24,000 bases of DNA from Candidatus Micrarchaeia archaeon (GCA_038874185.1 JAVZCX010000005.1:1-24000); one strand, 5' to 3'. Counted from the first letter of the stretch, positions 1 to 17,662 are shown. The notes: a model not told the origin generated them from the sequence alone. Numbers and translations: made by a program.

Positions 1-111
1 TGTTTTTTGCTTTATTTCCTGTTTTTTATCCAATTTCACTTATTCACCTTTTAAGTGTTTATTTGATTATAGATAATTATAAAAAATATATTTAAATTGT
101 TCATATGACTA

Positions 112-972
112 TTACTCAATCTTCTCATAGCTACTTAATCTCAATTCCATGCCTTCGCTTGAAATAGTTATTGGGAATGGAAGATCTGAAATTGCTATCT
201 TTGTTTCCGAAACAGAAGTTGATTGAGAAGGATAATTTGTAGGCTGTTCATATGATCTTAACAGATATTCCTTAACATTAAAGCTTCCAGCCTCTGTATT
301 CATATTCGATGTTCTATTCAAATCAATTAGGCTTTCCATGCAGATTCTTGTTGGAATGTCTGCAGGCATGCAATCTGCTGATTGAGGGTATTCCTTACCT
401 TGTACTGAAAATATATATGATGCGTTAAGACAATTAAAGTTTGAATCATAATTATAGAGCATTGTTATTTCTGAAACTGTTTGCTCGAAATCTGCTGTGG
501 ATGTGTTAGAATTATTTGATGAATTATTTGATGAAATTTCATAAAATTGGGAAAGATTCATAAAATAAGTAATTTTTCTAACATAACCGATACCGCTAGC
601 ATGGCTCTCCTTTCTTTCTGTCTTATAATCTATATAACCTATCTCAATCAAAGAGCTGTTAGTTCCATAAACATACCAATCATATCTTACATTGTACTTC
701 ACACTGTCTTTGGTAATTGGTGAATCGCATTCAGAAAGATAGGAATAATTTGATTGTTGAATAGAACTGGAAACGTTCAAATATGATGAAGACTTGACAT
801 TTTTAGAAAGAAAACTTGGTAAGATTGACAAAATATATGCGATTATAAATAATCCAACTATAATTGCAAGATAAAAGACAAAATGCCTTATGAAATCTGA
901 TTTTGCTGTATTTGCATCTTCTTTAGCTAATTTTTCTTTAATTTTTTTGCTTTTCTTTGATTTTTCATCCAT
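112..972 (-). CDS. Single-pass (type II-like) membrane-anchored protein with an N/S-rich ectodomain; unknown function; last gene of the array transcription unit in this window
   Basis: 286-aa ORF. K-rich N-terminus (MDEKSKKSKKIKEKLAKED) is followed by one hydrophobic span (FVFYLAIIVGLFIIAYILSILPSFL). The rest is rich in N, S, T and Y, with about ten N-x-S/T sequons by manual count and several Cys. GGTGAT Shine-Dalgarno motif lies 4 nt upstream of the ATG (rc of 973-990). Confidence 0.7.
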   Translation of the reverse strand: MDEKSKKSKKIKEKLAKEDANTAKSDFIRHFVFYLAIIVGLFIIAYILSILPSFLSKNVKSSSYLNVSSSIQQSNYSYLSECDSPITKDSVKYNVRYDWYVYGTNSSLIEIGYIDYKTERKESHASGIGYVRKITYFMNLSQFYEISSNNSSNNSNTSTADFEQTVSEITMLYNYDSNFNCLNASYIFSVQGKEYPQSADCMPADIPTRICMESLIDLNRTSNMNTEAGSFNVKEYLLRSYEQPTNYPSQSTSVSETKIAISDLPFPITISSEGMELRLSSYEKIE

Positions 973-1046
973 AAAATCACCATTCGATCATCACTTAATT
1001 TTTAGTAAGTAATTATCGCGAATTATCTAATCTCTAACAACTGTTG

Positions 1047-2333
1047 TCATAACATTCTAAACATTGTCCTTCCGATCTCAGATATATCAGCTCCCAAAAT
1101 GCTTGAGAGAGAACGGATAAATATGAAAGTAACTCCAAGAGAGATTAACATATAAACAAATGCCATAAATCTCATAGAATTCATGCCTGCTTGTATCTTA
1201 AGTGTAGATGCATCTAACTGCGCAAAATCCTCTGCTCCAGATGTTAATATGGATTCGGTTGCACCAATATTGACTGGACAGGATTTTTCTACCATCTCAG
1301 GGCTTAATTGAATCTGCAAATTACAACCCTCAATCTGTCTTGGCCCACCTACGTAAAGAAGAGTATAAACTAATGGATAAACAAAATAAAATCCGATTGC
1401 AATCGCCACCAATACTGCTCCTGCACCCCTTGTTGGTGGAAATGAACGCAGTATCAAACCGATTGGTAAGAAGAGTGTAAATAAAGAAGTTTCAATAAAC
1501 TTTAAAACTGCAATCTGTGCATATAAGAAAAGTGAAAGCCATGCTAACTCATTCATATTATAATCTGCCTTTGCAGCTGTGATTGCCCAAGATTTCACAA
1601 ATGCAAATGGATTTGGAAGTGGCAGACTCAGATCCTTTTTTTTACTTAGCTCAATAATGATTCCCAAATACATTGTCATTAACTTGGAATATGTTTTTGC
1701 TTTGTCATACTCTGTTTTCATTTGTTGCTTTGCACAGTCTAGCATGTTTCTCATAAACGCAAGAGATACATCAAACGGGCTTATTTGGATTTGGCCCGAT
1801 AAAGCCCCTGCTTGAACCGAACCACCAGAAGAATTAAGAACCAATGCGGCTGTAATCGTCCTAGATGTGCCCTCTAATTTTGTTAGCATGTCTGTTTCAA
1901 ATGTTTCAAAGCCAAAAAGGAATGCTATAAGAAGGGCTGATGCTAAGACCTGCATTAGTTCTGCAAATGCAATTCTCTTAAATTGATCAGATTGAAATGC
2001 ATATGCAATCATATAAAATATTGCAACGCCAAGAAATGCAATCAGCAGAACAATAGTTGAGACTACAAACCAAGGTGATAATCCACCCGCAGGTGTAGAT
2101 TTAAGAAGTGTTTTTTTACTCCAACATTCTGCACTTGTAATGCAGTCCCTGCATGTATTATTATCACAGATTTGACCCTGCGGACAATCCAAATGAGAAG
2201 TGCAGGAACGAGCGTAGATGAAATTTGAAAGAATTATTAAAAATAAAATGAATAAAACAAAATAGGAAAATCTATGCATGAACTTTGTTGCTTTTACTTC
2301 TTCCTTTTTGAATTTATTAACTGTTATTTTCAT
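1047..2333 (-). CDS. Polytopic membrane protein, paralog P6 of an unrecognised family; carries a six-Cys N-terminal ecto-module
   Basis: 428-aa ORF. Signal peptide ends in IYA|RS, followed by CTSHLDCPQGQICDNNTCRDCITSAEC and several hydrophobic spans. Core family motif FLPIGLILRSFPPTRGAGAVLVAIAIGFYFVYPL. C-terminal tail GADISEIGRTMFRML. Confidence 0.85.
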   Translation of the reverse strand: MKITVNKFKKEEVKATKFMHRFSYFVLFILFLIILSNFIYARSCTSHLDCPQGQICDNNTCRDCITSAECWSKKTLLKSTPAGGLSPWFVVSTIVLLIAFLGVAIFYMIAYAFQSDQFKRIAFAELMQVLASALLIAFLFGFETFETDMLTKLEGTSRTITAALVLNSSGGSVQAGALSGQIQISPFDVSLAFMRNMLDCAKQQMKTEYDKAKTYSKLMTMYLGIIIELSKKKDLSLPLPNPFAFVKSWAITAAKADYNMNELAWLSLFLYAQIAVLKFIETSLFTLFLPIGLILRSFPPTRGAGAVLVAIAIGFYFVYPLVYTLLYVGGPRQIEGCNLQIQLSPEMVEKSCPVNIGATESILTSGAEDFAQLDASTLKIQAGMNSMRFMAFVYMLISLGVTFIFIRSLSSILGADISEIGRTMFRML

Positions 2334-2546
2334 ACGCTCACTTATACTATGAATAATACTCTGATTATAGATTTAAATTATATTTTAAATTATATTATGA
2401 TTAAATTATATTTATGAATTTATGAATAAATACAAATTAAATTAAATATTTATGCCATTATTACACCATTATTTATATTAATATACCATCTCACACTTGT
2501 ATCATTTTGTCATCAATTTATAACCTATACTCTTCATTTGTATTGT
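2334..2546 (-). promoter_or_regulatory. Probable internal promoter/regulatory spacer upstream of paralog P6
   Basis: Longest spacer in the array (213 bp) and extremely AT-rich. Contains three copies of the 12-mer TTAAATTATATT (2373-2384, 2385-2396, 2401-2412), 40-80 bp upstream of the P6 start. Confidence 0.35.
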
Positions 2547-3752
2547 TTATATCATTCTAGCCAAACCTGAGATATCAACTTCCTGTCCAAATGCACGACT
2601 CAGTTCTCTAACGATTGCTACTAAAATAATCCAATTTATTGCTGGAAGCAGAAAGACAGGCAACAATGTTTTACCTACCTCAATATAGCCTGAATTGAAC
2701 ATATCAACTGCAGTATTCAAAGAGCCTGAAAGAACCAACAGAAATGCTCCACCACCTAAGAGAGGTACAATTGTAAGCGGACCTAACGCAAGGATTGTAA
2801 CAGTTATTGATGACTCCCAATCCAACTGTGGGGGAGAAACTGGTTGTGGGGAGTTTATTATCATATAAGAAAATGAAAATAATATTGGATAAAAGAACCA
2901 CAAACCCAAAGCCAAAGCAATAAATGCTCCGCCAAGATCACGTGTGGGAGAAAAACATCTTAAGACAACTCCAACTGGTAATAAAAGATTGAGAAAATAT
3001 GTTTGAATTGAATATAAAACCACTTTATATCCGTGCAAAAGAGATATAGAAAGCATGATAAGGCTTGAAAACCAATTTAAACCACCCAAGGCAACACTTG
3101 TACCGGAAAGCAAGTTAGTGTATAACCCTATCTTTACAAAATTTCCTAGTGGAAGGAATGAAGGTGCGTTTACGGATATCCTACTTAGAGCAGATATATA
3201 CATTATAGAATTCATCATCTTTAAATATGCTGAAAGAGCAAGGGATTCTGCATAATCAAAATATTTTCCAGCAGTATCAAAAAATGATGCATCTGCAAAA
3301 CCGAATTGAGTCAGATCCACAGAACAAAATACCAATATAACACTATAAAGAACTCCAAGCATAATTGCAGTAACAAAGATTTGGATGATGTCTGTTTTAA
3401 CTCTTGCAAGCAAAGATGAAGCATCCAAAGCCTTTGCTATAAGAAACATGATAGATAATAGAGCAAATGATGCTAAAAGTCCAATCAAAGACAATGATTT
3501 CCAATTTTGTTCAACTCCAATCGGATTGCTTGTACTTTGGTTGCCGAAGTCTAATTGTAGAGCTACCTCGCAACCTTTAGGAACAGTTTGTTCTGTCGGC
3601 TGTTGTGACTGTGCAAAAATAAATGGTAATAATAAGAGTAAAAATGTAATTGCAGATGCAAATAAATGAATGTTTAATTTATAGCTGTAATTTTTTTTAT
3701 CAGACTTATTGTGATTAATTAATTTATGATAAATGAACTCTTTAATTTTCAT
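2547..3752 (-). CDS. Polytopic membrane protein, paralog P5 of the same family
   Basis: 401-aa ORF. Long n-region signal peptide ends in IFA|QS. Core motif LLPVGVVLRCFSPTRDLGGAFIALALGLWFFYPI. C-terminal tail GQEVDISGLARMI. GGTG SD-like motif upstream of the ATG. Confidence 0.85.
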   Translation of the reverse strand: MKIKEFIYHKLINHNKSDKKNYSYKLNIHLFASAITFLLLLLPFIFAQSQQPTEQTVPKGCEVALQLDFGNQSTSNPIGVEQNWKSLSLIGLLASFALLSIMFLIAKALDASSLLARVKTDIIQIFVTAIMLGVLYSVILVFCSVDLTQFGFADASFFDTAGKYFDYAESLALSAYLKMMNSIMYISALSRISVNAPSFLPLGNFVKIGLYTNLLSGTSVALGGLNWFSSLIMLSISLLHGYKVVLYSIQTYFLNLLLPVGVVLRCFSPTRDLGGAFIALALGLWFFYPILFSFSYMIINSPQPVSPPQLDWESSITVTILALGPLTIVPLLGGGAFLLVLSGSLNTAVDMFNSGYIEVGKTLLPVFLLPAINWIILVAIVRELSRAFGQEVDISGLARMI

Positions 3753-3823
3753 CGAAACACCAAATTACATATCAAATTCATAATGTATACAGTATATATT
3801 GATTAAATATATATCTCCTTATT

Positions 3824-3859
3824 AATCATTATATCAACCTAACAATCATTATATCAACC
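3824..3859. repeat. 16-bp direct repeat AATCATTATATCAACC x2 (period 20 bp) spanning the stop codon of paralog P4
   Basis: Copies at 3824-3839 and 3844-3859. The second encodes the last residues and stop (R-L-I-stop) of P4 on the minus strand. The first is an intergenic duplicate of that 3' end. Confidence 0.8.
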
Positions 3860-4997
3860 GCACCAATGTGCTCAGATCTATTTCTCCGCCCATCAACTCT
3901 GCAAGCCTTCTTATCACATTCAATGTTATTAAATATGCCATTAATGGAAGAACTGTTGCTTGAACTAATATAATATTTAGCATCTCAGTAGTTTTTGAAG
4001 ATGATAATTCATGCTTTAGTAGAGAAAGCAGATCCTCCGAAACCGCCCCCCGTACACCCAAGGAAATTGAATGAATAAGTACACTTAAAAAGCTAGTATC
4101 AATATCTGCTTTGCAAACGTCTGTTCCATTAAGAATATAGAAACCTATATCTTCTATAACTAAATAAAAGAATGGAAGAAAGATAGTAAATCCAAACACA
4201 ATTGCAATCAAAGCTGATCCTGCACCCCTTGTGTATGGAATTGTACGAAAGATCAGACCTAAAGGAAGCAGAACATTAAACAACCCTAATTGAAATTCTG
4301 ATGAAAGAAACACTGATTGGAGCGTAAGCTGCATCAAAACCGAACCGATAACCCCCATTGCAAGCGAACCAAATCCGATAAATCCGCCACCTGTTGGAAA
4401 GAGCGGAAAGTATTGATTATATTGACCTATCGATATAGACAAAGATGAGCTAATAGGAACTGAAAACACGCCAATGAATTTTATTAAATAAGCAGATGCC
4501 TTCTTTGTATACCCTATTAAACATGATACATAATTTAATACGTGTGCCTGAAGACTTACCCAGCTTGTTGAACTTATGCTTCTTTGGCTCTCTTGAAGTG
4601 GATTGACCCAATTTGTCTTAAGCAACGCAGGTGAAAATTTATCTAAAGTACTAAGAAGTCCTAAATAGATCATGAGAATAACCGCAGTTCCCAATACTTG
4701 AAAAAGAATCTCTTTTGATTTATTTATCAGGCTAGGATTCTCTAAAAACATTCCAAGTCCATAAAGCAATGCAACTATACTAATCATTGTCAGCATTAGA
4801 ATAACAGAGAGATTGACTAATACATCAGGAACACAAATACCATTCTTTATGTACGAGCCAAAACCGCATTGTGCTGCAAATGAAACTGGGCTGATTACAA
4901 CTAGAGATATCAAAAATAGAAGCAATGTTCCTTTTGACTTTGCTAACCTATTATCCTGATTTTTAATATTTTTAATATCAAAACCTATAATTGACAT
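3849..4997 (-). CDS. Polytopic membrane protein, paralog P4 of the same family
   Basis: 382-aa ORF. Signal peptide ends in SFA|AQ, followed by a C-x11-C ecto segment. Core motif LLPLGLIFRTIPYTRGAGSALIAIVFGFTIFLPF. C-terminal tail GGEIDLSTLVRLI. TAGGAG SD sits in the 17-nt spacer after the upstream gene. Confidence 0.85.
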   Translation of the reverse strand: MSIIGFDIKNIKNQDNRLAKSKGTLLLFLISLVVISPVSFAAQCGFGSYIKNGICVPDVLVNLSVILMLTMISIVALLYGLGMFLENPSLINKSKEILFQVLGTAVILMIYLGLLSTLDKFSPALLKTNWVNPLQESQRSISSTSWVSLQAHVLNYVSCLIGYTKKASAYLIKFIGVFSVPISSSLSISIGQYNQYFPLFPTGGGFIGFGSLAMGVIGSVLMQLTLQSVFLSSEFQLGLFNVLLPLGLIFRTIPYTRGAGSALIAIVFGFTIFLPFFYLVIEDIGFYILNGTDVCKADIDTSFLSVLIHSISLGVRGAVSEDLLSLLKHELSSSKTTEMLNIILVQATVLPLMAYLITLNVIRRLAELMGGEIDLSTLVRLI

Positions 4998-5014
4998 ACA
5001 AATCTCCTAATTTA

Positions 5015-6268
5015 CTAAATAATCCTCGTTAGTCCAGCAATCTCTGGATCTCCACCGATCATAGGTGAGAAGTGTCTTACAAACCCTAAGGTCACAAATA
5101 TTGCGAGAATTGGAAGTATGATTACTGATAGATATGCCCTTCCAAGTGCATCAAATAAACCTAATTTCACTAGTCTTGAACCATCATATTCACTGTATAA
5201 ATGTTCTATATTTGTAAATGACGATGTGGATCCAAGTAAAGGCCCAAAGATTGTAGCTGGATCAGATATCGAAAATGCAGTTACATCTATTTCTGGAAAT
5301 TGCGGTTCACCTAAAGTAACGGTTGACCTATCTATGCTATACCATGCTAAAACATACATCAATGGAACAAAGATGTAAATTCCAATTCCAAGAGCAATCA
5401 TAAGTCCGCCAAATTTTCTTAAAAACCAAAATGACCTTGAAACTATACCTATAACAAACAATAATCCTGAAAGAGAAGTTAGATATACTAATGCAAATTC
5501 CTGTATTTTAACTGCAGTTATTATTTTAAGATACTCTAAAAGTATTATCTCTATTATTTTGTTGTAGGAAAGATATTCTGGAAAAGCGCCGATTCCAAAT
5601 GAAAATGTAATTTGTTTTCCAAATAGAGTTACTTGGACTGAAGATCCGACTGATAATCCTTCATATAACTTCCCAACGAAATATGATTTAGAAAGCTGTT
5701 TTATAACCTGACCATATCGCTCGTATAATGAACCAAGGAAACCTCTAGCAATATAGATATGACATGGATATTCACAAGAAGGCGAACTAGTAGTTATAAG
5801 ATTCCATCTTCCTGTGCTGCTAACATAACTCCAATATTGAATGCTTCCATCTGCGGCAGTGGAAGAAAGAATGTCTTTTGCAAGTGAAGAAGCCAGACTC
5901 TCAACTATTCCAACGAAAGCAGTGAACAAAAAGAGAATTGCAATTGAAAGAACCACATTCATGGCTTCTTCCTTTGTCCATGCTTCCAGTTCACGCAATG
6001 CAAAGACCCTTGAAATCATAAATGCAATTCCCAAAAGTAAAATTACAATCAGCATTACAAAATAAGAAACAAACAGCCAATCTATATTTGTTGAAAAACC
6101 GAATACTCTTCCAACATTTGCTCCTGTCTGTGCGAATGCAACAGATGAAAGGAAAATAGATAAAGATAATACTAACAATACAAAATGAAGACTTTTGAAA
6201 CTAGCAAGATTAATGCAGATTCCGTTTTTATCCCCAGTTTTATCGTTTAATATAATAAGCCTTTTCAT
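5015..6268 (-). CDS. Polytopic membrane protein, paralog P3 of the same family
   Basis: 417-aa ORF. Signal peptide ends in AFA|QT. Post-TM1 helix SRVFALRELEAWTKEEAMNV. Core motif FVIGIVSRSFWFLRKFGGLMIALGIGIYIFVPL. C-terminal tail GGDPEIAGLTRII. The start codon overlaps the upstream stop as TAATG (6266-6270, minus strand). Confidence 0.85.
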   Translation of the reverse strand: MKRLIILNDKTGDKNGICINLASFKSLHFVLLVLSLSIFLSSVAFAQTGANVGRVFGFSTNIDWLFVSYFVMLIVILLLGIAFMISRVFALRELEAWTKEEAMNVVLSIAILFLFTAFVGIVESLASSLAKDILSSTAADGSIQYWSYVSSTGRWNLITTSSPSCEYPCHIYIARGFLGSLYERYGQVIKQLSKSYFVGKLYEGLSVGSSVQVTLFGKQITFSFGIGAFPEYLSYNKIIEIILLEYLKIITAVKIQEFALVYLTSLSGLLFVIGIVSRSFWFLRKFGGLMIALGIGIYIFVPLMYVLAWYSIDRSTVTLGEPQFPEIDVTAFSISDPATIFGPLLGSTSSFTNIEHLYSEYDGSRLVKLGLFDALGRAYLSVIILPILAIFVTLGFVRHFSPMIGGDPEIAGLTRII

Positions 6269-7146
6269 TATTCTCCCTTTAATTCTGCGAAATCATATTT
6301 AAATATTTCACTCAATGCTCTTGCACTTGCAATTGTAATGATACTGCTCAGTGCAGGAAAGAATACTGCCTGCGGTAGAATCAAACCTATGTTTTGCATT
6401 ATCTCCCGCATCTCACTTACTTGTAAGCAAGTGGAATCAAATTCAGTACTAATTCGTGAAGTAACAAAACCCTCTGTTGATTTCTCTGCAATTATATAAG
6501 TAAGTGGAAAAACGATATAAAATGCAAACGCGATTCCAATTATATAAGCAGCTGTATCTTTCATTCCAGGTATAATGCGTAATACTATTCCTATGGGTAG
6601 TAGATACTGAAATGCTATTATTGAAATAAAGATAAGGGCGTATTGCTGAATCATAAGGCTGGCAACAAATGGTGTAAGAAGTACTGCAAAATTCTCATAA
6701 ACGTTTGCGACTTCATTGCATCCTACTAACGGTGAATAAAAAAGTGCTTCATAGTCCTTTACCTCTGCGGAATAAATTCTGATTTCCTTTGCCTTGTTAT
6801 ACAATCCTTGTGATATGTCTGCAATTTGATTGCTTACTCTACCTGCATAGTTTATTGCAGATGTGAATGGGCTCTCATCATTCGTAATTGAGCAGGAAAG
6901 CGAGCAGGTAAGGTTAGCAACAATAGCTATGATTGAAATCCAGATAACTGCAACAGAAAGATGATAGAGCTCAAGTCTTACCATTGCTTCCCAATCACGC
7001 CTATTCAAAAATCTTGAAATCATGAAACCTATAGCCAATGCTAGAAGAACGATAAATATCAGAGCACCGATTGTAGGCATCCAATTTAAGTAATCTGATG
7101 ATAAAGTGCAAGTACCTAAACATGTTGGTATTTCACTGAATGTCAT
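6268..7146 (-). CDS. Polytopic membrane protein, paralog P2 (short form without N-terminal signal peptide)
   Basis: 292-aa ORF. It starts directly at the short ecto segment (PTCLGTC ... NWMP), then TM1. Post-TM1 helix SRFLNRRDWEAMVRLELYHL. Core motif LLPIGIVLRIIPGMKDTAAYIIGIAFAFYIVFPL. The tail is divergent (SEIFKYDFAELKGE). AAGGAG SD sits in the 23-nt spacer upstream. Confidence 0.85.
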   Translation of the reverse strand: MTFSEIPTCLGTCTLSSDYLNWMPTIGALIFIVLLALAIGFMISRFLNRRDWEAMVRLELYHLSVAVIWISIIAIVANLTCSLSCSITNDESPFTSAINYAGRVSNQIADISQGLYNKAKEIRIYSAEVKDYEALFYSPLVGCNEVANVYENFAVLLTPFVASLMIQQYALIFISIIAFQYLLPIGIVLRIIPGMKDTAAYIIGIAFAFYIVFPLTYIIAEKSTEGFVTSRISTEFDSTCLQVSEMREIMQNIGLILPQAVFFPALSSIITIASARALSEIFKYDFAELKGE

Positions 7147-7169
7147 GAATATTCAACTCCTTTAGCAGG

Positions 7170-8777
7170 TCATACAAGTTCCGCTACTCCAAGAATCTGC
7201 ACTTCTCCACCAATCGCAGGTGAAATAGATCTAATTCCAGTGACTACAACTATAAGAATAATAAATGGTAAGAAAATAAAGGGAACTACATATTGAAGAA
7301 TGTAAGGGAGATAGTTCAACATCATATCTACGATATAAGGTGCAAGATCTTTATTTAATGCAACATATGCGCCCAATAATGCAATGTTTGAAATAGACTG
7401 TGCAATAGCTGATACATAATTAGATATTAATGTTGCAAAGGCAGGTGTTACAGGTGGAGAGGATACTACTTCTATAGCTTGCTCTAATAATCCAGGTATA
7501 GCAACTATGCTAGGTAGAGAGATGGTTCCAATATATGGAGCTACATTTGTACCTGTGATAGTACTTATCCAAGTAATTCGTATTGCATTAAATCCAGCTT
7601 CAACCTTCTCCATCAAATCAATAGATGCTGGCTCATTGAATAATGCTTTTATGACGTCACAGATCAATATAAATATGGGTGCACAGACTGGAGCGAATAT
7701 ACCACATATTGATGAATATGACACTCCAGATGTAATACAAAATGGTATATAGCTAAATGGACCCTGTGTACCTACGTTCAAGATGCCACTTATTACTCCT
7801 ATAGCAAGATGACCTAGAAAATCAACTATTGCGTACCATTTAATTGTATTAACAAAAACATCCACCTTCCCGGGTTTGTTTATGTGAGGAATCGCTGTAT
7901 TGGGTTGAAATGCAGAATTATACATTGTTTGAAAGATAATAATTGAAAGAGGTACGAAGATATAAAGACCAATACCAAAGGCGATAAGAGTTCTACCCAT
8001 TTTTCTAGTGATTGTAAAGAAGTTTAAAAATAAACCAAATGGAATTAAGACAGGAAGTGCAATCTTCCATACAAAATTAAGAATTGCATTAGAAAAAAGA
8101 GACACTATCAGAGCAAAAAGTGAAACTGATTGAATCATACCCATATGAGAATTAAAAACATCCACACCTGCAAATGGATTGCCTATTTTCATTGTAAACA
8201 TATCTAATCCAATTACCATAAGTCTAAATTTGGTTCCTGGCTGTTCTGTATCACCGCCTTTATTATCACCTGCAATCTTAGTAACCAGATTATATTGTGG
8301 TGGTGGACCAGATAATAATCCAAGTGCATATCCCAAGCGAATAGTATCAAGATAAGCATCCATTAGTTCGTTGGCTATCGAATCCAAAAAATTAGTGGAT
8401 GCGTGCATTGGCGTATAACCTGTGACTGCAACATAGATATTATCTATTACACCCACTGCTATTAATAGTATAAGAACTAAAAATAAACTGGCAGATACTT
8501 CATATAATTCTGACTTTGCCCATGTTTCCAGTTTCGGAAGACTGAATGCCTTTCCTAACATGAAACCTATTCCTGCTAAAAGAAATCCGATCAAAGCCAC
8601 AATTCCTAGTACTGGGAGCCAGTTTGGAATGGCGATACCTAATAATCGTTCACCTTCTGAATCTGAAATCTGCGCATAAGAAATAGAAAGTAAACTGAAA
8701 AATAAAAATAGCAAAATCACATATGGCTTTATTTTTTTAAATAGACTGGGGAGGATGGTATATAAACTTAACATCAA
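7170..8777 (-). CDS. Polytopic membrane protein, paralog P1 (longest; first gene of the array)
   Basis: 535-aa ORF. The track start at 8777 is a TTG, so the ATG at 8772-8774 is the more likely start. Signal peptide ends in SYA|QI. Post-TM1 helix GKAFSLPKLETWAKSELYEV. Core motif LIPFGLFLNFFTITRKMGRTLIAFGIGLYIFVPL. C-terminal tail GGEVQILGVAELV. No SD upstream, consistent with a first-in-operon or short-leader gene. Confidence 0.85.
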   Translation of the reverse strand: MMLSLYTILPSLFKKIKPYVILLFLFFSLLSISYAQISDSEGERLLGIAIPNWLPVLGIVALIGFLLAGIGFMLGKAFSLPKLETWAKSELYEVSASLFLVLILLIAVGVIDNIYVAVTGYTPMHASTNFLDSIANELMDAYLDTIRLGYALGLLSGPPPQYNLVTKIAGDNKGGDTEQPGTKFRLMVIGLDMFTMKIGNPFAGVDVFNSHMGMIQSVSLFALIVSLFSNAILNFVWKIALPVLIPFGLFLNFFTITRKMGRTLIAFGIGLYIFVPLSIIIFQTMYNSAFQPNTAIPHINKPGKVDVFVNTIKWYAIVDFLGHLAIGVISGILNVGTQGPFSYIPFCITSGVSYSSICGIFAPVCAPIFILICDVIKALFNEPASIDLMEKVEAGFNAIRITWISTITGTNVAPYIGTISLPSIVAIPGLLEQAIEVVSSPPVTPAFATLISNYVSAIAQSISNIALLGAYVALNKDLAPYIVDMMLNYLPYILQYVVPFIFLPFIILIVVVTGIRSISPAIGGEVQILGVAELV

Positions 8778-8846
8778 TTATTATTAAAAGAAAAGAATTT
8801 AAAATTAGATATATATATGTAGATAGTACAAAATAATAGGGAAAGA
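8778..8846. promoter_or_regulatory. Divergent promoter region between the paralog array (minus) and the 1057-aa bitopic protein gene (plus)
   Basis: This 69-bp AT-rich spacer is the only non-coding DNA between two head-to-head units. It contains TATA-like runs (TTAAAATTAGATATATATATG). No transcription start site can be assigned by eye. Confidence 0.4.
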
Positions 8847-11800
8847 ATGATGAAAAAATTGATTACGAAAATGGAACTTGCCTTTGACCATATTTTGCTT
8901 TATGTACTTATTTTAACTTTTCTCTCTTTCTTATCTTCTTCTCTTTATGCTGTAAACATCTGTCCAATAGATAAGAACCCAACAGAAATAACAATCGAAC
9001 ATTCAAGGCATCCGATAAATATACCTATAGGTATAACTGATAATACAATCGATGTTAATATACAACTTAATGCAATCGATAGAAAAACGCAAAATAGAAT
9101 ACCTCTCGCAAATAAGCAGGTTCTAATAGAACTCGTACTTGGAAGCAAATTTGTAACAAAAAATGCAGCTGGTGACTTTGTTCTTTCAGATGAACCAGCT
9201 CCGTTTCCAATAAATACAAGTGAAAACGGAACTATTTCCTTCACGATTTTTACTCAACCCCCACTTCTTGAAAATGTAACTGACCCAAGAAAGATCTCAT
9301 ATTCAATAACTGCTACATTTACACCGAAACCAAAAGAACCATTGATGGGAAGTGTGAAAACAGAGCGGTATGTCCCAGGTGTGCTTCCAATCATAAGCAT
9401 GACTGCTTGTGCTCCTCTTTTCATAATATTTGCTCTTCTTGTTGCTGCGATGTTTGCATCTGGAAAGAATCCGTTTGGTTTATTTGACTTTTCAAGAGTT
9501 GCGTTTAAAGCGCCAAGAATTCAGCCTGGAAGAGTTACAACTAGGGCTAAAACAACTGTTGGCACAGCACTAGCTGGAACTGCAGCTGGTGTTCTAAAAA
9601 GTGTGCTCGAATATGAAAAACGAAAAGCGATGAGAAAAGGATTAGAAAGTTTAGAGAAGAAGGCTGAAGAACTTGAAAAACAAGGAAAGAAAGAAGAGGC
9701 CGCTAAAGTAAGAATGCAGGCTGCAACACTTTTAGACAAGGTAGGAAGGAGATTATCTATAAAAGAAATTAAAGAAAAGGAAAAGAAAGAAGCAGAGCTT
9801 GGAATTGAAAAAGAAGAAGTAAAATTTAGACCTAAAATGTTAATAAAGGGATTAAGCCAAGAAGAATACAAGGCACTTAGAGACAGATATAACATAAAAG
9901 ACATAGAAAAATTCCGTTTTGGCGAGATTTTAACCGCATCATTATTGCAGGCAATGTCTAGATTGGGATACAAACCATGGATATATGCACATGGTATGGC
10001 AGTGGCAATGGAAAGACAAAGACCTATAAATAGATTAAATAAAGATGAAATCGAGAAAACTACAGAGGACATAACAAAAACTTTCAAATTAACTAAAGAG
10101 GAAATAGAAGAACTGAAAAAGAAGAATATAAAATTAGTTGATGAGAATGGATTAACTCCAGAGGCAAAGAAGTTTCTGCTTGAGAAATTTTTGAATGCAG
10201 GATATATACCAAAAAGCATCCAAAGCGAATTCACCAGGTTAGGAATTCTTAACGTTAATACGTTAAAAACAGAAATCGAACTTATAGATAAAATGAAAGG
10301 TAAGATAGGTGAAAAACAAATAGATGAGAAAATTGCCAATAAATTATTCCCTACAGCAGAAGAAATGCAAAATACGACTCCAAAAACAGCTAAGAATTTA
10401 GATCAACTTGTTAATCTACTTAGAAGTGGAGACTATACAAAAGCGGAAAAACTGATTAACAAAATGGAAAACAATAGAAATGAAATGCTTAACAAAATAA
10501 TGCCTTCGATTCCGACTGGAAGAACTTACGATCTATTACCACCTTTAGAAAAACAAGAAATCGCTTATTATATACAACGCGGTGTAATCTCAGGAAATGA
10601 ATTTTATAAGCGCCTTGGAATAGAAATGACAGAGCATGAATTGGCACGATCGCTTGGATTAGTTGCAAATGAATATGGAATTCCTAAAGATTTAGCAAAA
10701 GCCATAAAAGAGAATGATTACAAATACATCAAAGAAGTATATGATAAAACTGAAGGCAATAAAGAACAACGAAAGGTATTTGAATACATCATAAATGAAG
10801 CAGGAATAGGATATGCGCTCAATTACTTTGGAAACAAGAAAGATTTGGATAATTTCTTAACAAGCGAAGGAAAAGGTGGGATGAATCGTGATCAAATAAG
10901 AGATGCCGTAATTAAGACGTATGGTTATGAAAGCTTAAAACCGTATTTGCAAAATGCAGTAGGAAAAGATGAAATTGAAAAAGTTAATTATCTCATGAAA
11001 GAAAGGATTGATACTTTAAGAAATGAGATTCAAAATCTAGAAGGCAAAGTACCTAGAGACGATACGAAGCTCGCATCTTTAAGAACAGAATATAATAATT
11101 TAAGTGATTATAGAAAAGAAATAGAAAATAGAACAAACACATTAAGCCTGTTAAAAGATATAAATCAAAATAATAATATCTTCAGTCCCGACAGTATCGC
11201 GAGAGAGATAAGTGATATAAATGCAAATTATTGGAAAACTTATACCGAATCACTTAATTCTGTAATCAAGAAAAGTAAAGAGGTAGAGATAGAAAGCTTG
11301 ACAAAGGATGTCAATAAAACACTTTATAATGCAGCTGTCAGTTCAAACGATCCAGATGTAAAGAAACAACTATTGGAAGAATGGCGAAAAGTAAATAAAT
11401 TAGAAGGGAAGGAACCAACAATGGTTGGAGAGATTCGTAATGAATTTGAATCTCTCAAAACAGTGAAGGAATCACTAACAAACTCAATTGAGACTTTAAA
11501 TGATGAAATAAGTAAAAAACAAGCGATAATAAACGATTCTAAAACGCCTCCTGACGAAAGAAAAGAACTAGAAAATCAGATAAACAAACTTAAAAACATA
11601 ACATCAAACTTAGAGGATACCAACAAGAAATATGAGATAGATAAAAATTATAAAGAATACAAAACAATTTTAGAAGAACATACCAAAATGTTTAATGAGC
11701 ATCCTTATTTAGAGTACGGACATATTGATTCTATTTCTAAATTACCTGTAGAAGAAATTAAATATACATCTAATAGGGATGACCCTATTAACTCTCAACA

Positions 11801-12020
11801 CCTAACTCAAGCGAATGATATATTTCAAGCGTTCACTGCATTTAGTAACAGCAGTCTTGCCATGTATATTAAAAGAGTAGGCGAAGAAAACGGTTGGAAT
11901 GAAAAATGGCGTGAGCCTCCGACTTATTCTGAAAAAGAAATGAAAAAATTCAATGATGCTTTCTGGGGAGGTGAGGAAGAAAAGAAAGTAAATATGGAAT
12001 TTACTAAAAGTAAGGAATAA
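8847..12020 (+). CDS. Large bitopic membrane protein: signal peptide, beta-rich (Ig-like?) ectodomain of about 140 aa, single TM, about 850-aa K/E-rich helical cytoplasmic domain
   Basis: 1057-aa ORF. Signal peptide is LSFLSSSLYA|VN. Ectodomain (aa 36 to about 178) shows alternating beta-like patterns (VLIELVLGS, GTISFTIFT, ISYSITATFTP). TM is LPIISMTACAPLFIIFALLVAAMFA (about nt 9381-9458), followed by a basic stretch (KAPRIQPGRVTTRAKTT). The remainder is long runs of E, K, L, I and N typical of coiled coil. Transcribed divergently from the paralog array. Confidence 0.85.
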   Translation: MMKKLITKMELAFDHILLYVLILTFLSFLSSSLYAVNICPIDKNPTEITIEHSRHPINIPIGITDNTIDVNIQLNAIDRKTQNRIPLANKQVLIELVLGSKFVTKNAAGDFVLSDEPAPFPINTSENGTISFTIFTQPPLLENVTDPRKISYSITATFTPKPKEPLMGSVKTERYVPGVLPIISMTACAPLFIIFALLVAAMFASGKNPFGLFDFSRVAFKAPRIQPGRVTTRAKTTVGTALAGTAAGVLKSVLEYEKRKAMRKGLESLEKKAEELEKQGKKEEAAKVRMQAATLLDKVGRRLSIKEIKEKEKKEAELGIEKEEVKFRPKMLIKGLSQEEYKALRDRYNIKDIEKFRFGEILTASLLQAMSRLGYKPWIYAHGMAVAMERQRPINRLNKDEIEKTTEDITKTFKLTKEEIEELKKKNIKLVDENGLTPEAKKFLLEKFLNAGYIPKSIQSEFTRLGILNVNTLKTEIELIDKMKGKIGEKQIDEKIANKLFPTAEEMQNTTPKTAKNLDQLVNLLRSGDYTKAEKLINKMENNRNEMLNKIMPSIPTGRTYDLLPPLEKQEIAYYIQRGVISGNEFYKRLGIEMTEHELARSLGLVANEYGIPKDLAKAIKENDYKYIKEVYDKTEGNKEQRKVFEYIINEAGIGYALNYFGNKKDLDNFLTSEGKGGMNRDQIRDAVIKTYGYESLKPYLQNAVGKDEIEKVNYLMKERIDTLRNEIQNLEGKVPRDDTKLASLRTEYNNLSDYRKEIENRTNTLSLLKDINQNNNIFSPDSIAREISDINANYWKTYTESLNSVIKKSKEVEIESLTKDVNKTLYNAAVSSNDPDVKKQLLEEWRKVNKLEGKEPTMVGEIRNEFESLKTVKESLTNSIETLNDEISKKQAIINDSKTPPDERKELENQINKLKNITSNLEDTNKKYEIDKNYKEYKTILEEHTKMFNEHPYLEYGHIDSISKLPVEEIKYTSNRDDPINSQHLTQANDIFQAFTAFSNSSLAMYIKRVGEENGWNEKWREPPTYSEKEMKKFNDAFWGGEEEKKVNMEFTKSKE

Positions 12021-12032
12021 AAATTGAATTAA

Positions 12033-13364
12033 TCACCGGCCAAAAAATTTTTGCCTTTTCATTTTCTCTTCTGCAATCCGCATTACTTTTTCTGCCTCTT
12101 CATCGTCTTTGAACTCTACGGATTCACCTTTAAGTAATTTATCTGCCAACTCTTCAAGATGCTCCCTTTCCTTGTCCCATTGCTGTTGAAGTTCTTTCAA
12201 TAATGGTTGACCTTTGCAAACTTCTGCTGCCTTATCAATATACTTTTGATAAAATGGAAGCATTGCTGTTGATATTTCTATTCTTTTATCAATCAATTTT
12301 CTAATAAGATCACTAATAAATCTGACTCCCTCATCTAGTTTCATTGATTTGTGTCCCCAAAGTTTATTCCACTCATCATCTGATAAATCCTTATTATATT
12401 TTAAGAAATCTGATACCTTACTATAAGGTAAGTTCTTTATAAATTCTTTTTGGATTCCATGATGGACTTTATTGATTTTCTTGGCATCATTTCCTTCTTT
12501 TTGGATTGAATTAAGAAGTGTACCTTCTATTCGAGCTAGATGCTCCTTTGCTTCATTTGCAATTATAATAAAACTCTTCTCGTCTGCAAAATCTCTGAAT
12601 ACGTTATCTCGAAGAAAGCAAGGAGTAGAAAGCTCCCTGACATTGCTAACGGCATAGTTTGTAAGTCCTACATTATACAATAGATCACTGATTGCCCTGT
12701 ACAACATACGAAAGTAGAATTCATAATACCACTTTCTATATGAAAATGAAACATTATATTCCATTGCAGGTTTTACTACCTCTGAAATGGTCAAAACAGA
12801 TCTAATCCAATCCATATGACGAATTAGTCTATCCTTTTTTTCTAATTCAGGGGTCAATTCATCTTTCTTCTTATATATATCATTTTTCAATCTAAATACA
12901 AAAGTGCGCATTTGTAAAACCTTTAACGCCTCAATTATTCTTTCGTTTTTTTCCTTTCCGATTCTCTCTTCAACTTTTTCCATTAACTCGGGAAGTCTCT
13001 TATATTTACAGTGATATACGGCCTCCTTAATTTGAGAAGTTAAATCCTCTATTTCTTTGTCATTGATATAATACTTCCATTTCAAGTCGGAAATGTGGGA
13101 AAAGAGAAGATGGTTATGGTGGGATTCATCAAAATCCAAGCTGCTAATATTGAAAAAAATATCTTCATTCATATTTGTGTCTTGTGAAGAAGTATACGAG
13201 CTTAAATTATCAACGGTAGTAGAGCTCGTACCTATCGTTTCTTGTGAATATGAAGGAAACATAAGTCCTGCAGCTAGAACAGTGCCAAATGCAAATCTCT
13301 TGATTCTATCTTTTATTCGGTATGTCGTCTTTATTTCCTTTTCTGCCATATATTTTATTAGCAT
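12033..13364 (-). CDS. Exported or anchored alpha-helical protein, unknown function
   Basis: 443-aa ORF. Basic N-terminus plus hydrophobic span (RFAFGTVLAAGLMFPSYSQ), then an S/T-rich linker and a large domain that looks helical and rich in K, E and aromatic residues. The true start may be the internal Met (MAEKEIK). Confidence 0.7.
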   Translation of the reverse strand: MLIKYMAEKEIKTTYRIKDRIKRFAFGTVLAAGLMFPSYSQETIGTSSTTVDNLSSYTSSQDTNMNEDIFFNISSLDFDESHHNHLLFSHISDLKWKYYINDKEIEDLTSQIKEAVYHCKYKRLPELMEKVEERIGKEKNERIIEALKVLQMRTFVFRLKNDIYKKKDELTPELEKKDRLIRHMDWIRSVLTISEVVKPAMEYNVSFSYRKWYYEFYFRMLYRAISDLLYNVGLTNYAVSNVRELSTPCFLRDNVFRDFADEKSFIIIANEAKEHLARIEGTLLNSIQKEGNDAKKINKVHHGIQKEFIKNLPYSKVSDFLKYNKDLSDDEWNKLWGHKSMKLDEGVRFISDLIRKLIDKRIEISTAMLPFYQKYIDKAAEVCKGQPLLKELQQQWDKEREHLEELADKLLKGESVEFKDDEEAEKVMRIAEEKMKRQKFFGR

Positions 13365-13544
13365 TTCTTATTAATATTTTTTGCTTTTATTCTCTTTTAA
13401 TTTTATGTTCATCGGCTGGGGATTCAATAAATCAATAAAATTAGAAGAATATATTAAAGATGAATATAGTAAAATGGAAAAGGATAAAAATCAAGAAAAA
13501 AGATAATTACGGTAAAGAATATAAATAAGAAATTCGAGAATAGT
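13365..13544. promoter_or_regulatory. Divergent promoter region between 12033-13364 (minus) and 13545-14375 (plus)
   Basis: 180-bp AT-rich non-coding spacer between head-to-head genes. Confidence 0.35.
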
Positions 13545-14375
13545 ATGGTAGAAAAAATGGAAAAGGAAAGAGATAAAATAAAGAAAAAAGAAGAAAGCTT
13601 GACAGAAAAGATAAGAAGACCTATTGTAGAGAATATTGCAAAAGGACTAATAGGTTTTGGATTAATTTTTAATCCTGTGAAAGCAAACGCATTCTACGAC
13701 TACTATTATCTATATTATCCAGAATATAAAGAAATTGCTGAAATAATAGATAAGGATTTTGATGAGGAAAAAGGTAAAGTAATAAAGGAAATGTGGAATG
13801 CAAGAGAGAAAGACATGACCAAAAAAGCGATTGACATTCTAACTAATTTAGAAATAATGGAAATAGATCTAGAAGAGAAATATAATATAATAGAAGATAA
13901 AAAGAAATTCTATTTATATAGTATTCTTTTAATGAAGCAAGCAGAGTTCAATACTATAATTGATACCAAAGAAAAAGAAAGATTGCTTTATTTGGTAAGA
14001 GACAGAGTAACGAGAGAACTTGAAAAAGATCCTTATAATGTAGATACTCTGGAATTGGTACTTTTGAATGATAAAATATTGAAAGACATGTACCAAGAAG
14101 CAGGTTATTATATTGATATATATTATGAAGATGCAAGGAAACAAGGAAGACTTGAAATTAAAAACATAAGAACTAAATTCATAAATTCTATAAAGAGTTT
14201 CAAAGAACATTATGATAAATTAAACGAATTATTAAATATAGATAAGAATAAACGAACTTCTATATTTGACTATAGTAATAGAGAAAAGAAAAAGAAGATT
14301 AAAAGAATGATAGAAAAATTCGAAAATGATATGATTAGTATTGAAATGGATCTTAGAAAAGAAAGGCTCTTATAA
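13545..14375 (+). CDS. Exported or anchored K/E-rich helical protein, unknown function
   Basis: 276-aa ORF. Basic N-terminus, then a short hydrophobic span (IAKGLIGFGLIFNPVKANA|F), then a helical K/E/Y-rich sequence. Forms a divergent pair with 12033-13364. Confidence 0.65.
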   Translation: MVEKMEKERDKIKKKEESLTEKIRRPIVENIAKGLIGFGLIFNPVKANAFYDYYYLYYPEYKEIAEIIDKDFDEEKGKVIKEMWNAREKDMTKKAIDILTNLEIMEIDLEEKYNIIEDKKKFYLYSILLMKQAEFNTIIDTKEKERLLYLVRDRVTRELEKDPYNVDTLELVLLNDKILKDMYQEAGYYIDIYYEDARKQGRLEIKNIRTKFINSIKSFKEHYDKLNELLNIDKNKRTSIFDYSNREKKKKIKRMIEKFENDMISIEMDLRKERLL

Positions 14376-14410
14376 GTGCAATAATCAATATATAGAATTC
14401 TAAAATGAAA

Positions 14411-14431
14411 AGATATTAAAAAAATAAAACA
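14411..14431 (-). terminator. Putative archaeal oligo-T terminator for the tbp-domain gene
   Basis: An A7 run at 14418-14424 on the plus strand gives T7 on the minus strand, about 17-23 nt after the tbp stop. More T-rich sequence follows (minus strand reads TTTGTTTTATTTTTTTAATATCTTTTC). This is weak evidence in such an AT-rich genome. Confidence 0.3.
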
Positions 14432-14440
14432 AATTATAAA

Positions 14441-14719
14441 TCATCTCTTCTTCTGTGCTTTTTGAAGAATTGCCATTGCATTTCTGATTGCTAATTTTAC
14501 TTCTTTTTCTGTCTTGCAACCTGTACAGATTATCTTTCCATTCTTGAAGAGAAGTAATGATGATTTTGGTTCTTTAAGCTTAAGAATAGCTCCTGGGAAT
14601 TGCTCAGGCTCATATTCGATATTTGGAACCTTCCTTCCAAGAGAATAAAGATCCAGTTCGATTCCTAAGTTTGCTGATGCTACAATATTCTCAATCTTAA
14701 ATTTGACATCTTTCGCCAT
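14441..14719 (-). CDS. tbp: TATA-box-binding-protein domain protein consisting of a single TBP repeat (92 aa, half the normal TBP length)
   Basis: KFKIENIVASANLGIELDL ... NIEYEPEQFPGAILKLKEPKSSLLLFKNGKIICTGCKTEKEV matches the canonical TBP repeat (IENIVAS...L.L, EYEPE.FPG, EPK...L.F.SGK.V.TG.K). The protein ends in a basic tail (QKAQKKR) where the inter-repeat linker would start. GGGTG SD-like motif lies upstream of the ATG. Confidence 0.85.
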   Translation of the reverse strand: MAKDVKFKIENIVASANLGIELDLYSLGRKVPNIEYEPEQFPGAILKLKEPKSSLLLFKNGKIICTGCKTEKEVKLAIRNAMAILQKAQKKR

Positions 14720-14947
14720 TAAAACACCCTTTAAAAGCCCGATTATAACTCGGCCTTTTTAAATACTTAAATTTATATACCTCGGAAAGTATTTAAACCT
14801 ATTTAAATAGATAAAATTGCTGAGGATCTCATTTAGATATATGTATATTTTTAAACTTATCCTACATATATTATATCAATCTACATATTCGTTAGTATAG
14901 TTAGAATAAATTATAGCTAAATTTTGATAGATTTTTGAAGTGATATT
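14720..14947. promoter_or_regulatory. Divergent promoter region between the single-repeat tbp (minus) and the rpl21e operon (plus)
   Basis: 228-bp spacer with several TTTAAATA-type TATA-like elements and an 11-bp perfect inverted repeat (listed separately). Confidence 0.4.
14758..14797. repeat. Perfect 11-bp inverted repeat TTTAAATACTT / AAGTATTTAAA separated by 18 nt
   Basis: Read directly: 14758-14768 TTTAAATACTT, and its exact reverse complement at 14787-14797. Confidence 0.8.
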
Positions 14948-15232
14948 ATGGTAAAAGCATCAAAAGGAAGAATGAGCAGAAAAAGCAGAGTGCTTGGTAG
15001 AAAATCAACAAAAAGAAAGGTCACAGTAGTAGAACAATTAAAGACAATAAAGATAGGAACAAAGGTACAACTCGTTCCTAATGCTAAGTTCGAAGACTTT
15101 CCACACCCAAGATATGCTGGAAGGGTTGGAATAGTTAAAGGCAAGCAAGGAAACGCTTACATTGTTGAAGTCCAAGACGGAAGCATAAAAAAGAGATTCA
15201 TAACCTCTGCTGTTCATCTAAAGGAATGCTAG
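14948..15232 (+). CDS. rpl21e: 50S ribosomal protein L21e
   Basis: 94 aa. Basic N-terminus MVKASKGRMSRKSR, and FPHPRYAGRVGIVKGKQGNAYIVEV typical of L21e. GTGAT SD upstream. Heads the conserved archaeal L21e-RpoF-DUF655-KsgA neighbourhood. Confidence 0.9.
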   Translation: MVKASKGRMSRKSRVLGRKSTKRKVTVVEQLKTIKIGTKVQLVPNAKFEDFPHPRYAGRVGIVKGKQGNAYIVEVQDGSIKKRFITSAVHLKEC

Positions 15233-15243
15233 ATTAAAAGTAA

Positions 15244-15594
15244 GTGGTTAAAATGATAGGGAAAAAAACGCTTGATGTTAGGGAAGTCACACTTGCAGAA
15301 GTAAAAGAAATCCTTGAAATGCCTAGCGAGGTAGAGATGGGTTTTGAACAGGCGAAAACATTAGAATATGCAAAAAAAATGACTAAATTAAGCAAAGAAA
15401 AGGCAGAGGAAATGGTAACTGAACTTATGAATGAGGTTGCAAAGCTTAATAGAGCAAAGGCAGTAAAGGTAGTTGACTTGATGCCAAAGAAAAAAGAAGA
15501 GATTGATCAAATATTCGCAAAAGAGACTTATTCTTTAACTGAAGAGGAGATCAACAAGATAATTGAGATAGTTGCAAAGTACCAGAAAGAATAA
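15244..15594 (+). CDS. rpoF: DNA-directed RNA polymerase subunit F (Rpo4/RpoF)
   Basis: About 113-116 aa, acidic and helical (TLAEVKEIL ... AKAVKVVDLMP). Its position immediately after rpl21e and before the DUF655 gene matches the conserved archaeal gene order. The track start at 15244 is GTG; the ATG at 15253 is an alternative. Confidence 0.75.
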   Translation: MVKMIGKKTLDVREVTLAEVKEILEMPSEVEMGFEQAKTLEYAKKMTKLSKEKAEEMVTELMNEVAKLNRAKAVKVVDLMPKKKEEIDQIFAKETYSLTEEEINKIIEIVAKYQKE

Positions 15595-15607
15595 CTGGTG
15601 ATTTTTT

Positions 15608-16180: not shown

Positions 16181-16200
16181 ACAAATAGCTTAGTGATTTT

Positions 16201-16839: not shown

Positions 16840-16854
16840 TAAAATGTAGATAAG

Positions 16855-17634: not shown

Positions 17635-17640
17635 ATAATA

Positions 17641-17662
17641 AAATATCTATCAAATATCTATC
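17641..17662. repeat. 2 x 11-bp tandem repeat AAATATCTATC just downstream of the rsmA stop
   Basis: Read directly: copies at 17641-17651 and 17652-17662. Confidence 0.8.

Follow-up and report, generated by a model that had tools for sequence, protein, structure and literature searches.

The stretch of DNA analysed here (the window, 24,000 nucleotides, assembly GCA_038874185.1, contig JAVZCX010000005.1) belongs to a metagenome-assembled genome of Candidatus Micrarchaeia within the DPANN archaea and has a GC content of about 33 %; its 428-aa protein (P1 below) shows 100 % identity to an annotated protein of such a genome. It carries six consecutive genes for paralogous membrane proteins, and this set of six (the hexad) recurs as a tandem array throughout Micrarchaeota. 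The paralogs are ancient, distinct orthogroups which were inherited vertically and whose gene order is fixed, and they constitute an undescribed family that is new to the databases and of which no description was found in the literature. An initial annotation had combined all ten genes between positions 112 and 14375 into one co-oriented surface module. Synteny splits this island, and the surface module is therefore a unit of 6+3 genes, namely the phylum-wide hexad and three partners confined to a subclade, and not a ten-gene unit. Hexad and partners may form a VirB6-like envelope platform or conduit of six subunits for contact and exchange with a host, a possibility which we favour tentatively. 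The genes of the array and its two noncoding intervals are as follows.

7170..8777, minus strand: P6, 535 amino acids (aa), initiated at TTG, opens the operon at array position 1 (family profile and hydropathy)
6268..7146, minus strand: P5, 292 aa, array position 2, the minimal member (family profile; AlphaFold model)
5015..6268, minus strand: P4, 417 aa, array position 3 (family profile)
3849..4997, minus strand: P3, 382 aa, array position 4 (family profile; AlphaFold model)
2547..3752, minus strand: P2, 401 aa, array position 5 (family profile and hydropathy)
1047..2333, minus strand: P1, 428 aa, array position 6 (family profile and hydropathy)
2334..2546, no strand: AT-rich spacer of 213 nucleotides (nt) between P2 and P1 with repeated ATAATTTAA-like motifs
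8778..8846, no strand: AT-rich divergent intergenic region of 69 nt between P6 and the gene of a 1057-aa protein (composition)

P1 to P6 are 22–26 % identical to each other and are true paralogs, as had been annotated initially. All six contain the core motif LLPxGxxLRxFPxTRxxG...P, and one pair is still 71 % identical at the DNA level over 96 nt. A signal peptide ending in ..A|Q and five transmembrane (TM) segments are present in five of the proteins; P5 has the five TM segments and lacks both the signal peptide and the C-terminal tail motif GG[DE]xxxxGLxRxI, which is found in the other five. P1 additionally has a Cys-rich N-terminal ectodomain between its signal peptide and the TM segments, and P6 a large second extracellular insertion. 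The genes are tightly packed: P5 and P4 overlap by 1 nt (distance −1), further distances amount to 17 and 23 nt, and 96 and 213 nt precede the last two genes. The 69-nt region is the presumed location of both divergent promoters. The 213-nt spacer contains no credible small open reading frame (ORF); it may hold an internal promoter which allows separate expression of P1 and of the two genes behind it, encoding a 286-aa protein and a giant surface protein.

An exhaustive profile search returned 3107 cluster representatives of the family at E ≤ 1e-3, including 2538 at E ≤ 1e-10, and every named representative that was sampled comes from Micrarchaeota. No Pfam match exists in 35 family members and nine long members, a PDB sequence search with the family profile gave no match, and no relatives were found on viral contigs. 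A word-index search with a diverse alignment of 48 sequences detected just 18 proteins, none of them from a cultured species. We found no account of the six-gene array in the literature. According to the accessible part of a survey, most lineage-specific families of DPANN archaea are without a predicted function and probably consist of membrane-bound or extracellular proteins (PMC8204110). The hexad family fits this description; that part of the survey gives no six-paralog array and names Micrarchaeota just once. The fixed hexad, its positional orthology and its VirB6-like fold are new here.

For synteny one genome per species was sampled, giving 57 loci in which every stop-to-stop ORF was rescanned with the family profile. 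The loci are labelled Micrarchaeota or carry unspecific archaeal labels (three 'Ca. ainarchaeum sp.' and a few 'uncultured archaeon'), and none is assigned to another phylum. The same locus as in the window is carried by GCA_038873075.1. A contiguous same-strand array is present in every locus except those cut by a contig end. Exactly six tandem members on one strand occur in 44 complete arrays from other Micrarchaeota genomes; beyond these, one locus has six members including two frameshift splits, and in one locus five were detected. The family-profile E-values together with the recurrence in 44 other genomes place the array far beyond chance. In 263 of 264 cases from the 44 arrays the best cross-genome match lies at the same array position, and position 2 (the 292-aa type) always lacks the tail motif; because of these two observations the paralogs have to be regarded as six distinct, ancient orthogroups in a fixed order.

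This conservation bears on the proposal that no common apparatus exists and that the paralogs act independently, as separate homo-oligomers or as anchors for different ectodomains, with the other island genes as unrelated neighbours. Individual members indeed bear large ectodomains of their own, the accessory genes shift position (locus L005 has the 1057-aa gene downstream of the giant one), the 443-aa gene has no homologue in any locus, and the 276-aa gene occurs in close relatives only. However, each of the 44 arrays has kept its six members, none having been lost, gained or reshuffled although the genomes diverge on the scale of the phylum, genes overlap or abut, and the same cytoplasmic motifs are common to all six. 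Such a pattern is predicted by obligate co-assembly and is hard to explain for independent proteins, which makes independence very improbable.

A common topology is suggested by hydropathy and the AlphaFold helices, by external loops that contain Cys pairs and sequons, and by internal loops rich in Arg. The N-terminus would lie outside; TM1 and TM2 would be joined by a short basic loop, TM2 and TM3 by a large external helical domain, TM3 and TM4 by a cytoplasmic loop with the LRxFPxTRxxG signature, and TM4 and TM5 by a second external loop, with a cytoplasmic tail after TM5. The conserved Cys pairs, sequons and domain insertions all fall in loops assigned to the outside, and the Arg-rich signature and the C-terminal tail fall on the inside. 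Family-wide conserved columns are limited to TM1 with loop 1, TM3-loop-TM4 and TM5 with the tail; TM3 and TM4 contain conserved Pro/Gly kinks, and conserved Arg/Glu residues lie at the cytoplasmic face. The extracellular loops are variable and have accreted adhesin-type domains. Long family members of 1300–1700 aa occur in L005 (2433–7451) and L012 (2061–5993) and as proteins P0167 and P0172. The P4 orthologue of L005 is fused to an N-terminal ectodomain of about 1300 aa with F5/8 type C (discoidin) and Big (bacterial Ig-like) domains, and the remaining long members have large domains or insertions without known domain. The conserved TM core is therefore taken as an anchor for variable adhesin-like modules. 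An apparent fusion of P1 with the 286-aa protein in L012 was dismissed as an artefact of reading an alternative-frame ORF.

The AlphaFold model of P5, based on an alignment of 51 sequences, is confident and all-helical (pLDDT 86, pTM 0.76), and its helices of 34–49 residues prolong the TM segments into an extracellular bundle. The model of P3 is likewise all-helical with helices of 40–47 residues (pLDDT 70, pTM 0.64). In a Foldseek search against 350,542 PDB chains the top two matches of P5 were two chains of TrwI, the VirB6 protein of the R388 type IV secretion system, aligned over the full length at probability 0.99 and 0.98, with marginal E-values (0.019 and 0.026) and TM-scores (0.36 and 0.34). 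As a pentamer, VirB6 makes up the base of the stalk in type IV secretion, and it acts as a pilus-assembly platform (PMC9259494; PMC11294453). It is reported to have four to five TM domains, the central ones being conserved together with the cytoplasmic loop between the third and the fourth (PMC7648143). The hexad proteins resemble it in this four-to-five-TM build and in the conservation of the central TMs and the TM3–TM4 cytoplasmic loop. The N-terminus of VirB6 lies outside and the C-terminus inside, with a large loop after TM2. The predicted topology of the paralogs corresponds to this arrangement, comprising an outside N-terminus, about five TMs, a large external loop after TM2, a cytoplasmic TM3–TM4 loop and an inside C-terminus.

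The following picture of a VirB6-like platform is proposed. Each subunit would be exported by a cleavable Sec signal (..A|Q) and would span the membrane with five TM helices, its N-terminus outside, and long helices would rise from the membrane between TM2 and TM3 into an extracellular bundle. The six subunits, probably in one copy each, would come together in the cytoplasmic membrane as one pseudo-symmetric ring or stalk base, whose architecture would follow that of the VirB6 (TrwI) pentamer below the type IV secretion stalk. A single complex is most likely because six co-retained and tightly packed subunits share a conserved cytoplasmic face. This face would dock cytoplasmic partners; among the genes nearby, just the 1057-aa protein contributes a cytoplasmic part of any size, its long cytoplasmic domain. 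The outward part may consist of the variable extracellular loops, to which this subclade would add the 286-aa glycoprotein, the Cys-rich lipobox protein of about 2800 aa and the 1057-aa protein with its ectodomain. As a permanent platform or conduit of the envelope, the complex would serve contact and exchange with the host, either passively or powered by an ATPase encoded elsewhere. A bolder version sees in the hexad a Micrarchaeota-defining hetero-hexameric pore, VirB6-derived or wholly new and uncoupled from conjugation ATPases, which would serve as a conduit for host lipids, DNA or metabolites with the giant adhesin of the subclade as host-recognition head; we consider this version unlikely.

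Several observations weigh against the VirB6-like platform. An E-value of about 0.02 and a TM-score of 0.36 are marginal for a fold match, and designed helical bundles come next in the list of P5, so that a generic similarity of long helices is possible. No match to the VirB6 family (TrbL, PF04610) at E ≤ 1 was obtained for the six window paralogs or 35 family members, with TrwI as control at 4.9e-50. Comparison of the family alignments A2, A5 and A6 with TrwI or a VirB6 alignment by hhalign yielded probabilities of 0.2–0.9 % and a score of 21.0, the reversed control scoring 14.7. The window encodes neither a secretion-ATPase domain nor a convincing P-loop. The array flanks were surveyed with Pfam on three genes each side of the array in 28 genomes, in which 63 families were matched; among the 25 most frequent of these there is no secretion ATPase family and no VirB4-, VirB2- or VirB3-like gene.

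The VirB6 profile used for hhalign was shallow, with nine sequences. The best local stretch paired the family signature LLPxGxxLRxFPxTR with GPxFIxxLLFxxTxRFF of VirB6 and was not significant. In the independent search with the P3 model TrwI was ranked 4th and 18th; this model is mediocre and gave no usable PDB fold match. The differences to VirB6 are clear as well: VirB6 is a homopentamer, whereas six distinct subunits are encoded here, no sequence or profile similarity to the hexad family was detected, and VirB2, B3, B4, B5, B8 and B10 partners are not near the hexad, whose array is chromosomal, phylum-wide and not located on mobile elements. True homology of the hexad with VirB6 appears possible and somewhat doubtful. 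Most likely, the hexad works like VirB6, and the family is not filed under VirB6 because every sequence test fails.

The same negative sequence tests favour a multi-subunit channel or transporter of a new kind unrelated to VirB6, for example for the uptake of lipids or metabolites which DPANN cells cannot make, the fold match being a coincidence of long helices. The TM-score of just 0.36 with designed helical bundles close behind, the transporter-like Pro/Gly kinks of TM3 and TM4 and cytoplasmic Arg/Glu residues, and the lack of linkage between the array and conjugation genes in the flanks of 28 genomes would all suit such a channel. On the other hand, no transporter family is matched in Pfam or NCBIfam, solved transporters all reach a fold-match probability of 0.25 or less, and six different subunits are unusual for a secondary transporter. 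We regard this explanation as unlikely.

Rickettsiales have tandem virB6 paralogs, four in Anaplasmataceae and five in Rickettsiaceae, some of them with giant surface-exposed extensions (PMC7648143). The hexad resembles these arrays in the fixed number of tandem, paralogous, polytopic proteins in one operon whose copy number is conserved across the lineage, in the very large surface-exposed extensions of some members, and in its occurrence in host-dependent organisms with reduced genomes. In contrast, the rickettsial arrays directly follow virB3-virB4 and are recognisable as TrbL/VirB6, whereas the hexad has no linked ATPase or TrbL signature and occurs in archaea, whose envelope has an S-layer. 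That VirB6-like proteins can be 'domesticated' in archaeal chromosomes and diverge strongly has a precedent in CedA and TedA, the VirB6-like pores of the Ced and Ted DNA-import systems, which are recognisable only by profile-profile comparison (PMC9905601). As far as can be judged from their description, these differ in being encoded by one gene with seven predicted TMs, beside a VirB2-like pilin and near a VirB4-like ATPase (PMC9905601), unlike the six 5-TM paralogs, which have neither. No VirB4-type ATPase, VirB2-like pilin or VirB3 that would link the hexad to a type IV secretion or Ced/Ted system was found in the window or among the 25 most frequent Pfam families of the array flanks in 28 genomes. 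The window contains no Walker A ATPase, as the sole G....GK[ST] match falls in a loop of paralog P2, and the island gaps contain no small hydrophobic ORFs of VirB2- or CedA1-like or other type. The conclusion of the initial annotation, that the system lacks an ATPase and is hence incomplete or passive, holds for the window and for the three-gene flanks of the array in 28 genomes.

The remaining genes of the island, and the beginning of the gene to its left, are listed here.

1..39, minus strand: truncated giant surface-protein gene, 13 N-terminal codons VKLDKKQEIKQKT, remainder beyond the left edge of the window
112..972, minus strand: A286, 286 aa, sequon-rich single-pass anchored protein with a single TM (residues 32–50)
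8847..12020, plus strand: CC1057, 1057 aa, bitopic (hydropathy)
12033..13364, minus strand: H443, 443 aa, charged helical protein with weak signal-like N-terminus
13545..14375, plus strand: H276, 276 aa, helical and strongly charged (42 % KRDE), its weak signal-like stretch terminating in ..KANA

Ten ORFs lie exactly between 112 and 14375 where they had been annotated. They do not share one orientation, since seven genes on the minus strand (112–8777) are followed by one each on the plus, minus and plus strand, and the island does not start at 112, as bases 39 to 1 on the minus strand begin the giant gene. None of the ten proteins has a significant family match in Pfam, NCBIfam, PHROGs or PADLOC, and a catalytic domain was recognisable in none, in agreement with the initial annotation. 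PADLOC yielded solely LmuB (20.6 bits), confined to the coiled coil of CC1057, and CARF_HEPN (13.2 bits, E 0.0072, no stretch passing alone) in H443, and hence no match to a model of a known anti-phage defence system. The notion that all ten are exported or anchored applies in full to eight, which contain strong hydrophobic segments (Kyte-Doolittle 19-residue means of 2.5–2.9). H443 and H276 reach 0.97 and 1.27 and have no strong hydrophobic segment; each has one signal-peptide-like stretch of 12 residues after a basic region (Kyte-Doolittle about 1.9 vs 2.7–3.4 in the others), by which their export appears plausible.

A286 has a basic cytoplasmic N-tail, one TM and an ectodomain and contains ten N-x-S/T sequons and four Cys, in accordance with its annotation as a sequon-rich anchored protein. 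Its orthologues directly follow the array in L004 and L006–L010 (the subclade of the window) as well as in L005 and L012, and within the subclade A286 always sits between the array and the giant gene. The giant gene was recovered adjoining A286 by the leftward extension, which is based on a 205-base overhang of L003 and on orthologous loci; from the overhang 81 residues are obtained, which agree with the beginning of the giant protein of L004. Orthologues of the giant have 2791–2943 aa, and 1997 aa in L012. In L004 and L005 their N-termini are lipobox-like (..LVSGC and ..IYGC), and these proteins have 126–138 Cys, 58–72 N-glycosylation sequons and cupredoxin-like repeats. The L004 giant (12136–20511), with 2791 aa, LVSGC, 138 Cys and 72 sequons, has several cupredoxin-like repeats and Cys knots of the Dickkopf/DUF7107 type. 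The Cys-rich knot at the N-terminus of P1 resembles those of the L004 giant.

CC1057 was correctly described as a bitopic coiled-coil protein: it consists of a signal peptide, a conserved ectodomain of about 145 aa, a TM (residues 182–200) and a charged helical cytoplasmic domain of about 850 aa. It has no P-loop, and a PDB sequence search gave no match. The matches of coiled-coil type are weak SMC-type ones at residues ~710–945, to an archaea-specific SMC-related protein (ASRP, E 0.002) and to LmuB. Conservation towards the L004 orthologue is confined to the N-terminal two-thirds. Orthologues adjoin the array in L004 and L006–L009.

The genes of A286, CC1057 and the giant thus travel together with the array in L004–L010, including L005, and an A286-like gene and the giant gene do so in L012. 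Conservation of the whole ten-gene block had been named beforehand as a check; it was borne out for the six paralogs across the phylum and for the three partners in the subclade, and failed for the other two genes. The 276-aa gene is kept beside the 1057-aa gene in the closest relatives only, and its membership in the module is doubtful. The 443-aa gene is probably a recent lineage-specific insertion rather than part of the module, because it has no homologue in any of 62 fetched loci and its neighbours, the genes of CC1057 and H276, adjoin each other directly in the closest relatives.

Another explanation is a structural envelope scaffold without any transport: the six subunits would form an anchor or stalk in the membrane and keep the S-layer, together with the giant glycoprotein in this subclade, at a constant distance above it. 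An array that is phylum-wide, embedded among housekeeping genes and has no ATPase nearby would agree with this, as would the extracellular helical bundle with its variable ectodomains and the neighbouring lipobox-bearing, Cys-rich glycoprotein. In Micrarchaeum, cleavage of the signal peptide may deprive the S-layer protein of its sole TM, and the authors of that work suggest another TM protein as stalk (bioRxiv 10.1101/2021.04.28.441871); the S-layer of ARM-1 is six-fold symmetric and shows densities toward the membrane (PMC11329633). However, the array is not linked to an S-layer gene, and the giant is restricted to the subclade and has no S-layer signature in NCBIfam. A purely external anchoring would moreover leave the strongly conserved cytoplasmic loop and tail unexplained, and the six-fold coincidence is numerology so far. 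A scaffold of this kind is therefore judged improbable.

The hexad might also serve as an assembly platform for type IV pilin-like filaments or give them passage through the envelope, acting with pilin-like proteins that an A24-type peptidase would process; this would be in line with the description of VirB6 itself as a pilus-assembly platform (PMC11294453). At least 14 of 58 loci have, no more than 10 kb away from the array, a cluster of genes for proteins with class III (prepilin-like) signal-peptide-like N-termini, one of about 530 aa and several of about 150 aa. None of these proteins has a Pfam match; examples are the following.

L037 15283..19046: pilin-like cluster
L022 653..3784: pilin-like cluster
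L048 9332..12700: pilin-like cluster
at least eleven further loci: pilin-like clusters

The clusters occur in three arrangements, two of which are directly adjacent to the array (L022, L048). The window contains the Peptidase_A24-like gene which had been annotated 6 kb to the right (20568–21374, plus strand); the gene is present, but its match of 23.3 bits stays below the Pfam cut-off of 26.5, and the 268-aa protein is extended at its C-terminus by a long additional membrane region. Neither the window nor its subclade contains pilin-like genes, housekeeping genes (PIN, RNA ligase, CarS, SppA) mostly lie between the array and the clusters elsewhere, and their recurrence may largely reflect the relatedness of the genomes. 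Furthermore, type IV pili use PilC/FlaJ platforms, none of which is linked to the array. Neither a T2SSE nor a T2SSF domain of an archaeal type IV pilus or archaellum was found in the window, and the signals of the island are of Sec type and not of class III. A pilin platform is accordingly a remote alternative.

A trans-envelope apparatus, as had been suggested initially for the island, receives some support from the VirB6-like fold match; attachment, bridging and uptake are indistinguishable on this basis. In Micrarchaeota, neither attachment to hosts nor the uptake of host resources, both part of the life of DPANN archaea, has so far been connected with a set of genes. The hexad is a concrete phylum-wide candidate for such an apparatus: about 7.5 kb of a genome which, by our own estimate from DPANN biology, may have about 1 Mb, unbroken in 44 genomes and belonging to an undescribed family with thousands of members. 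The VirB6 stalk offers a structural analogy that can be tested. If the link to VirB6 is true, the hexad would be the third independent chromosomal fixation of conjugation-derived parts, after Ced/Ted and the Rickettsiales arrays, and the first without a linked ATPase; if it is false, the hexad would represent a membrane complex of several subunits and of a new kind. Whichever applies, the complex can be searched for in existing cryo-tomograms and proteomes of cultured Micrarchaeota.

The chromosomal setting of the island agrees with what had been proposed, and the array is supported as chromosomally fixed and not recently mobile. No integrase, transposase, tRNA, Rfam match or flanking repeat was found at the locus. 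The GC content is 0.337 in the island vs 0.335 in the flank, GC at third codon positions 0.257 vs 0.285, and synonymous codon usage differs modestly (p about 0.006 against random gene partitions), which is better explained by strand and membrane-protein bias. The comparison of composition thus gave no sign of horizontal origin, with GC near-equal and a modest codon difference. A mobile or viral origin was rejected on the same absence of mobile genes, tRNA and repeats and on the absence of viral relatives, with an array that is conserved across the phylum in one chromosomal context; it is this phylum-wide vertical conservation which settles the question. The hallmarks of a genomic island, namely an integrase or transposase, repeats or a tRNA target, deviant composition and a patchy distribution, are all missing here. 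In distant genomes the array is flanked by the housekeeping genes AspRS, PIN_5 ribonuclease, SurE, RNA ligase, LeuRS and CarS. Recurrent upstream genes of about 430 and 920 aa were considered as partners and turned out to encode AspRS, enolase and LeuRS.

At its right border the island ends at informational genes as annotated, with TBP, L21e and Rpb4/RpoF followed by DUF655, a Yip1-domain membrane protein, KsgA, class I LysRS, Pus10, the weak Peptidase_A24 match, DTD, DUF63 and a peptidase-like protein. The TBP gene (14441–14719, minus strand) encodes 92 aa with a single PF00352 repeat (model positions 1–84 of 85), and the TBP orthologue of L008 (28–315) has 95 aa and likewise one repeat. Because the canonical archaeal TBP contains two repeats and that of the window one, the single-repeat protein would have to act as a homodimer.

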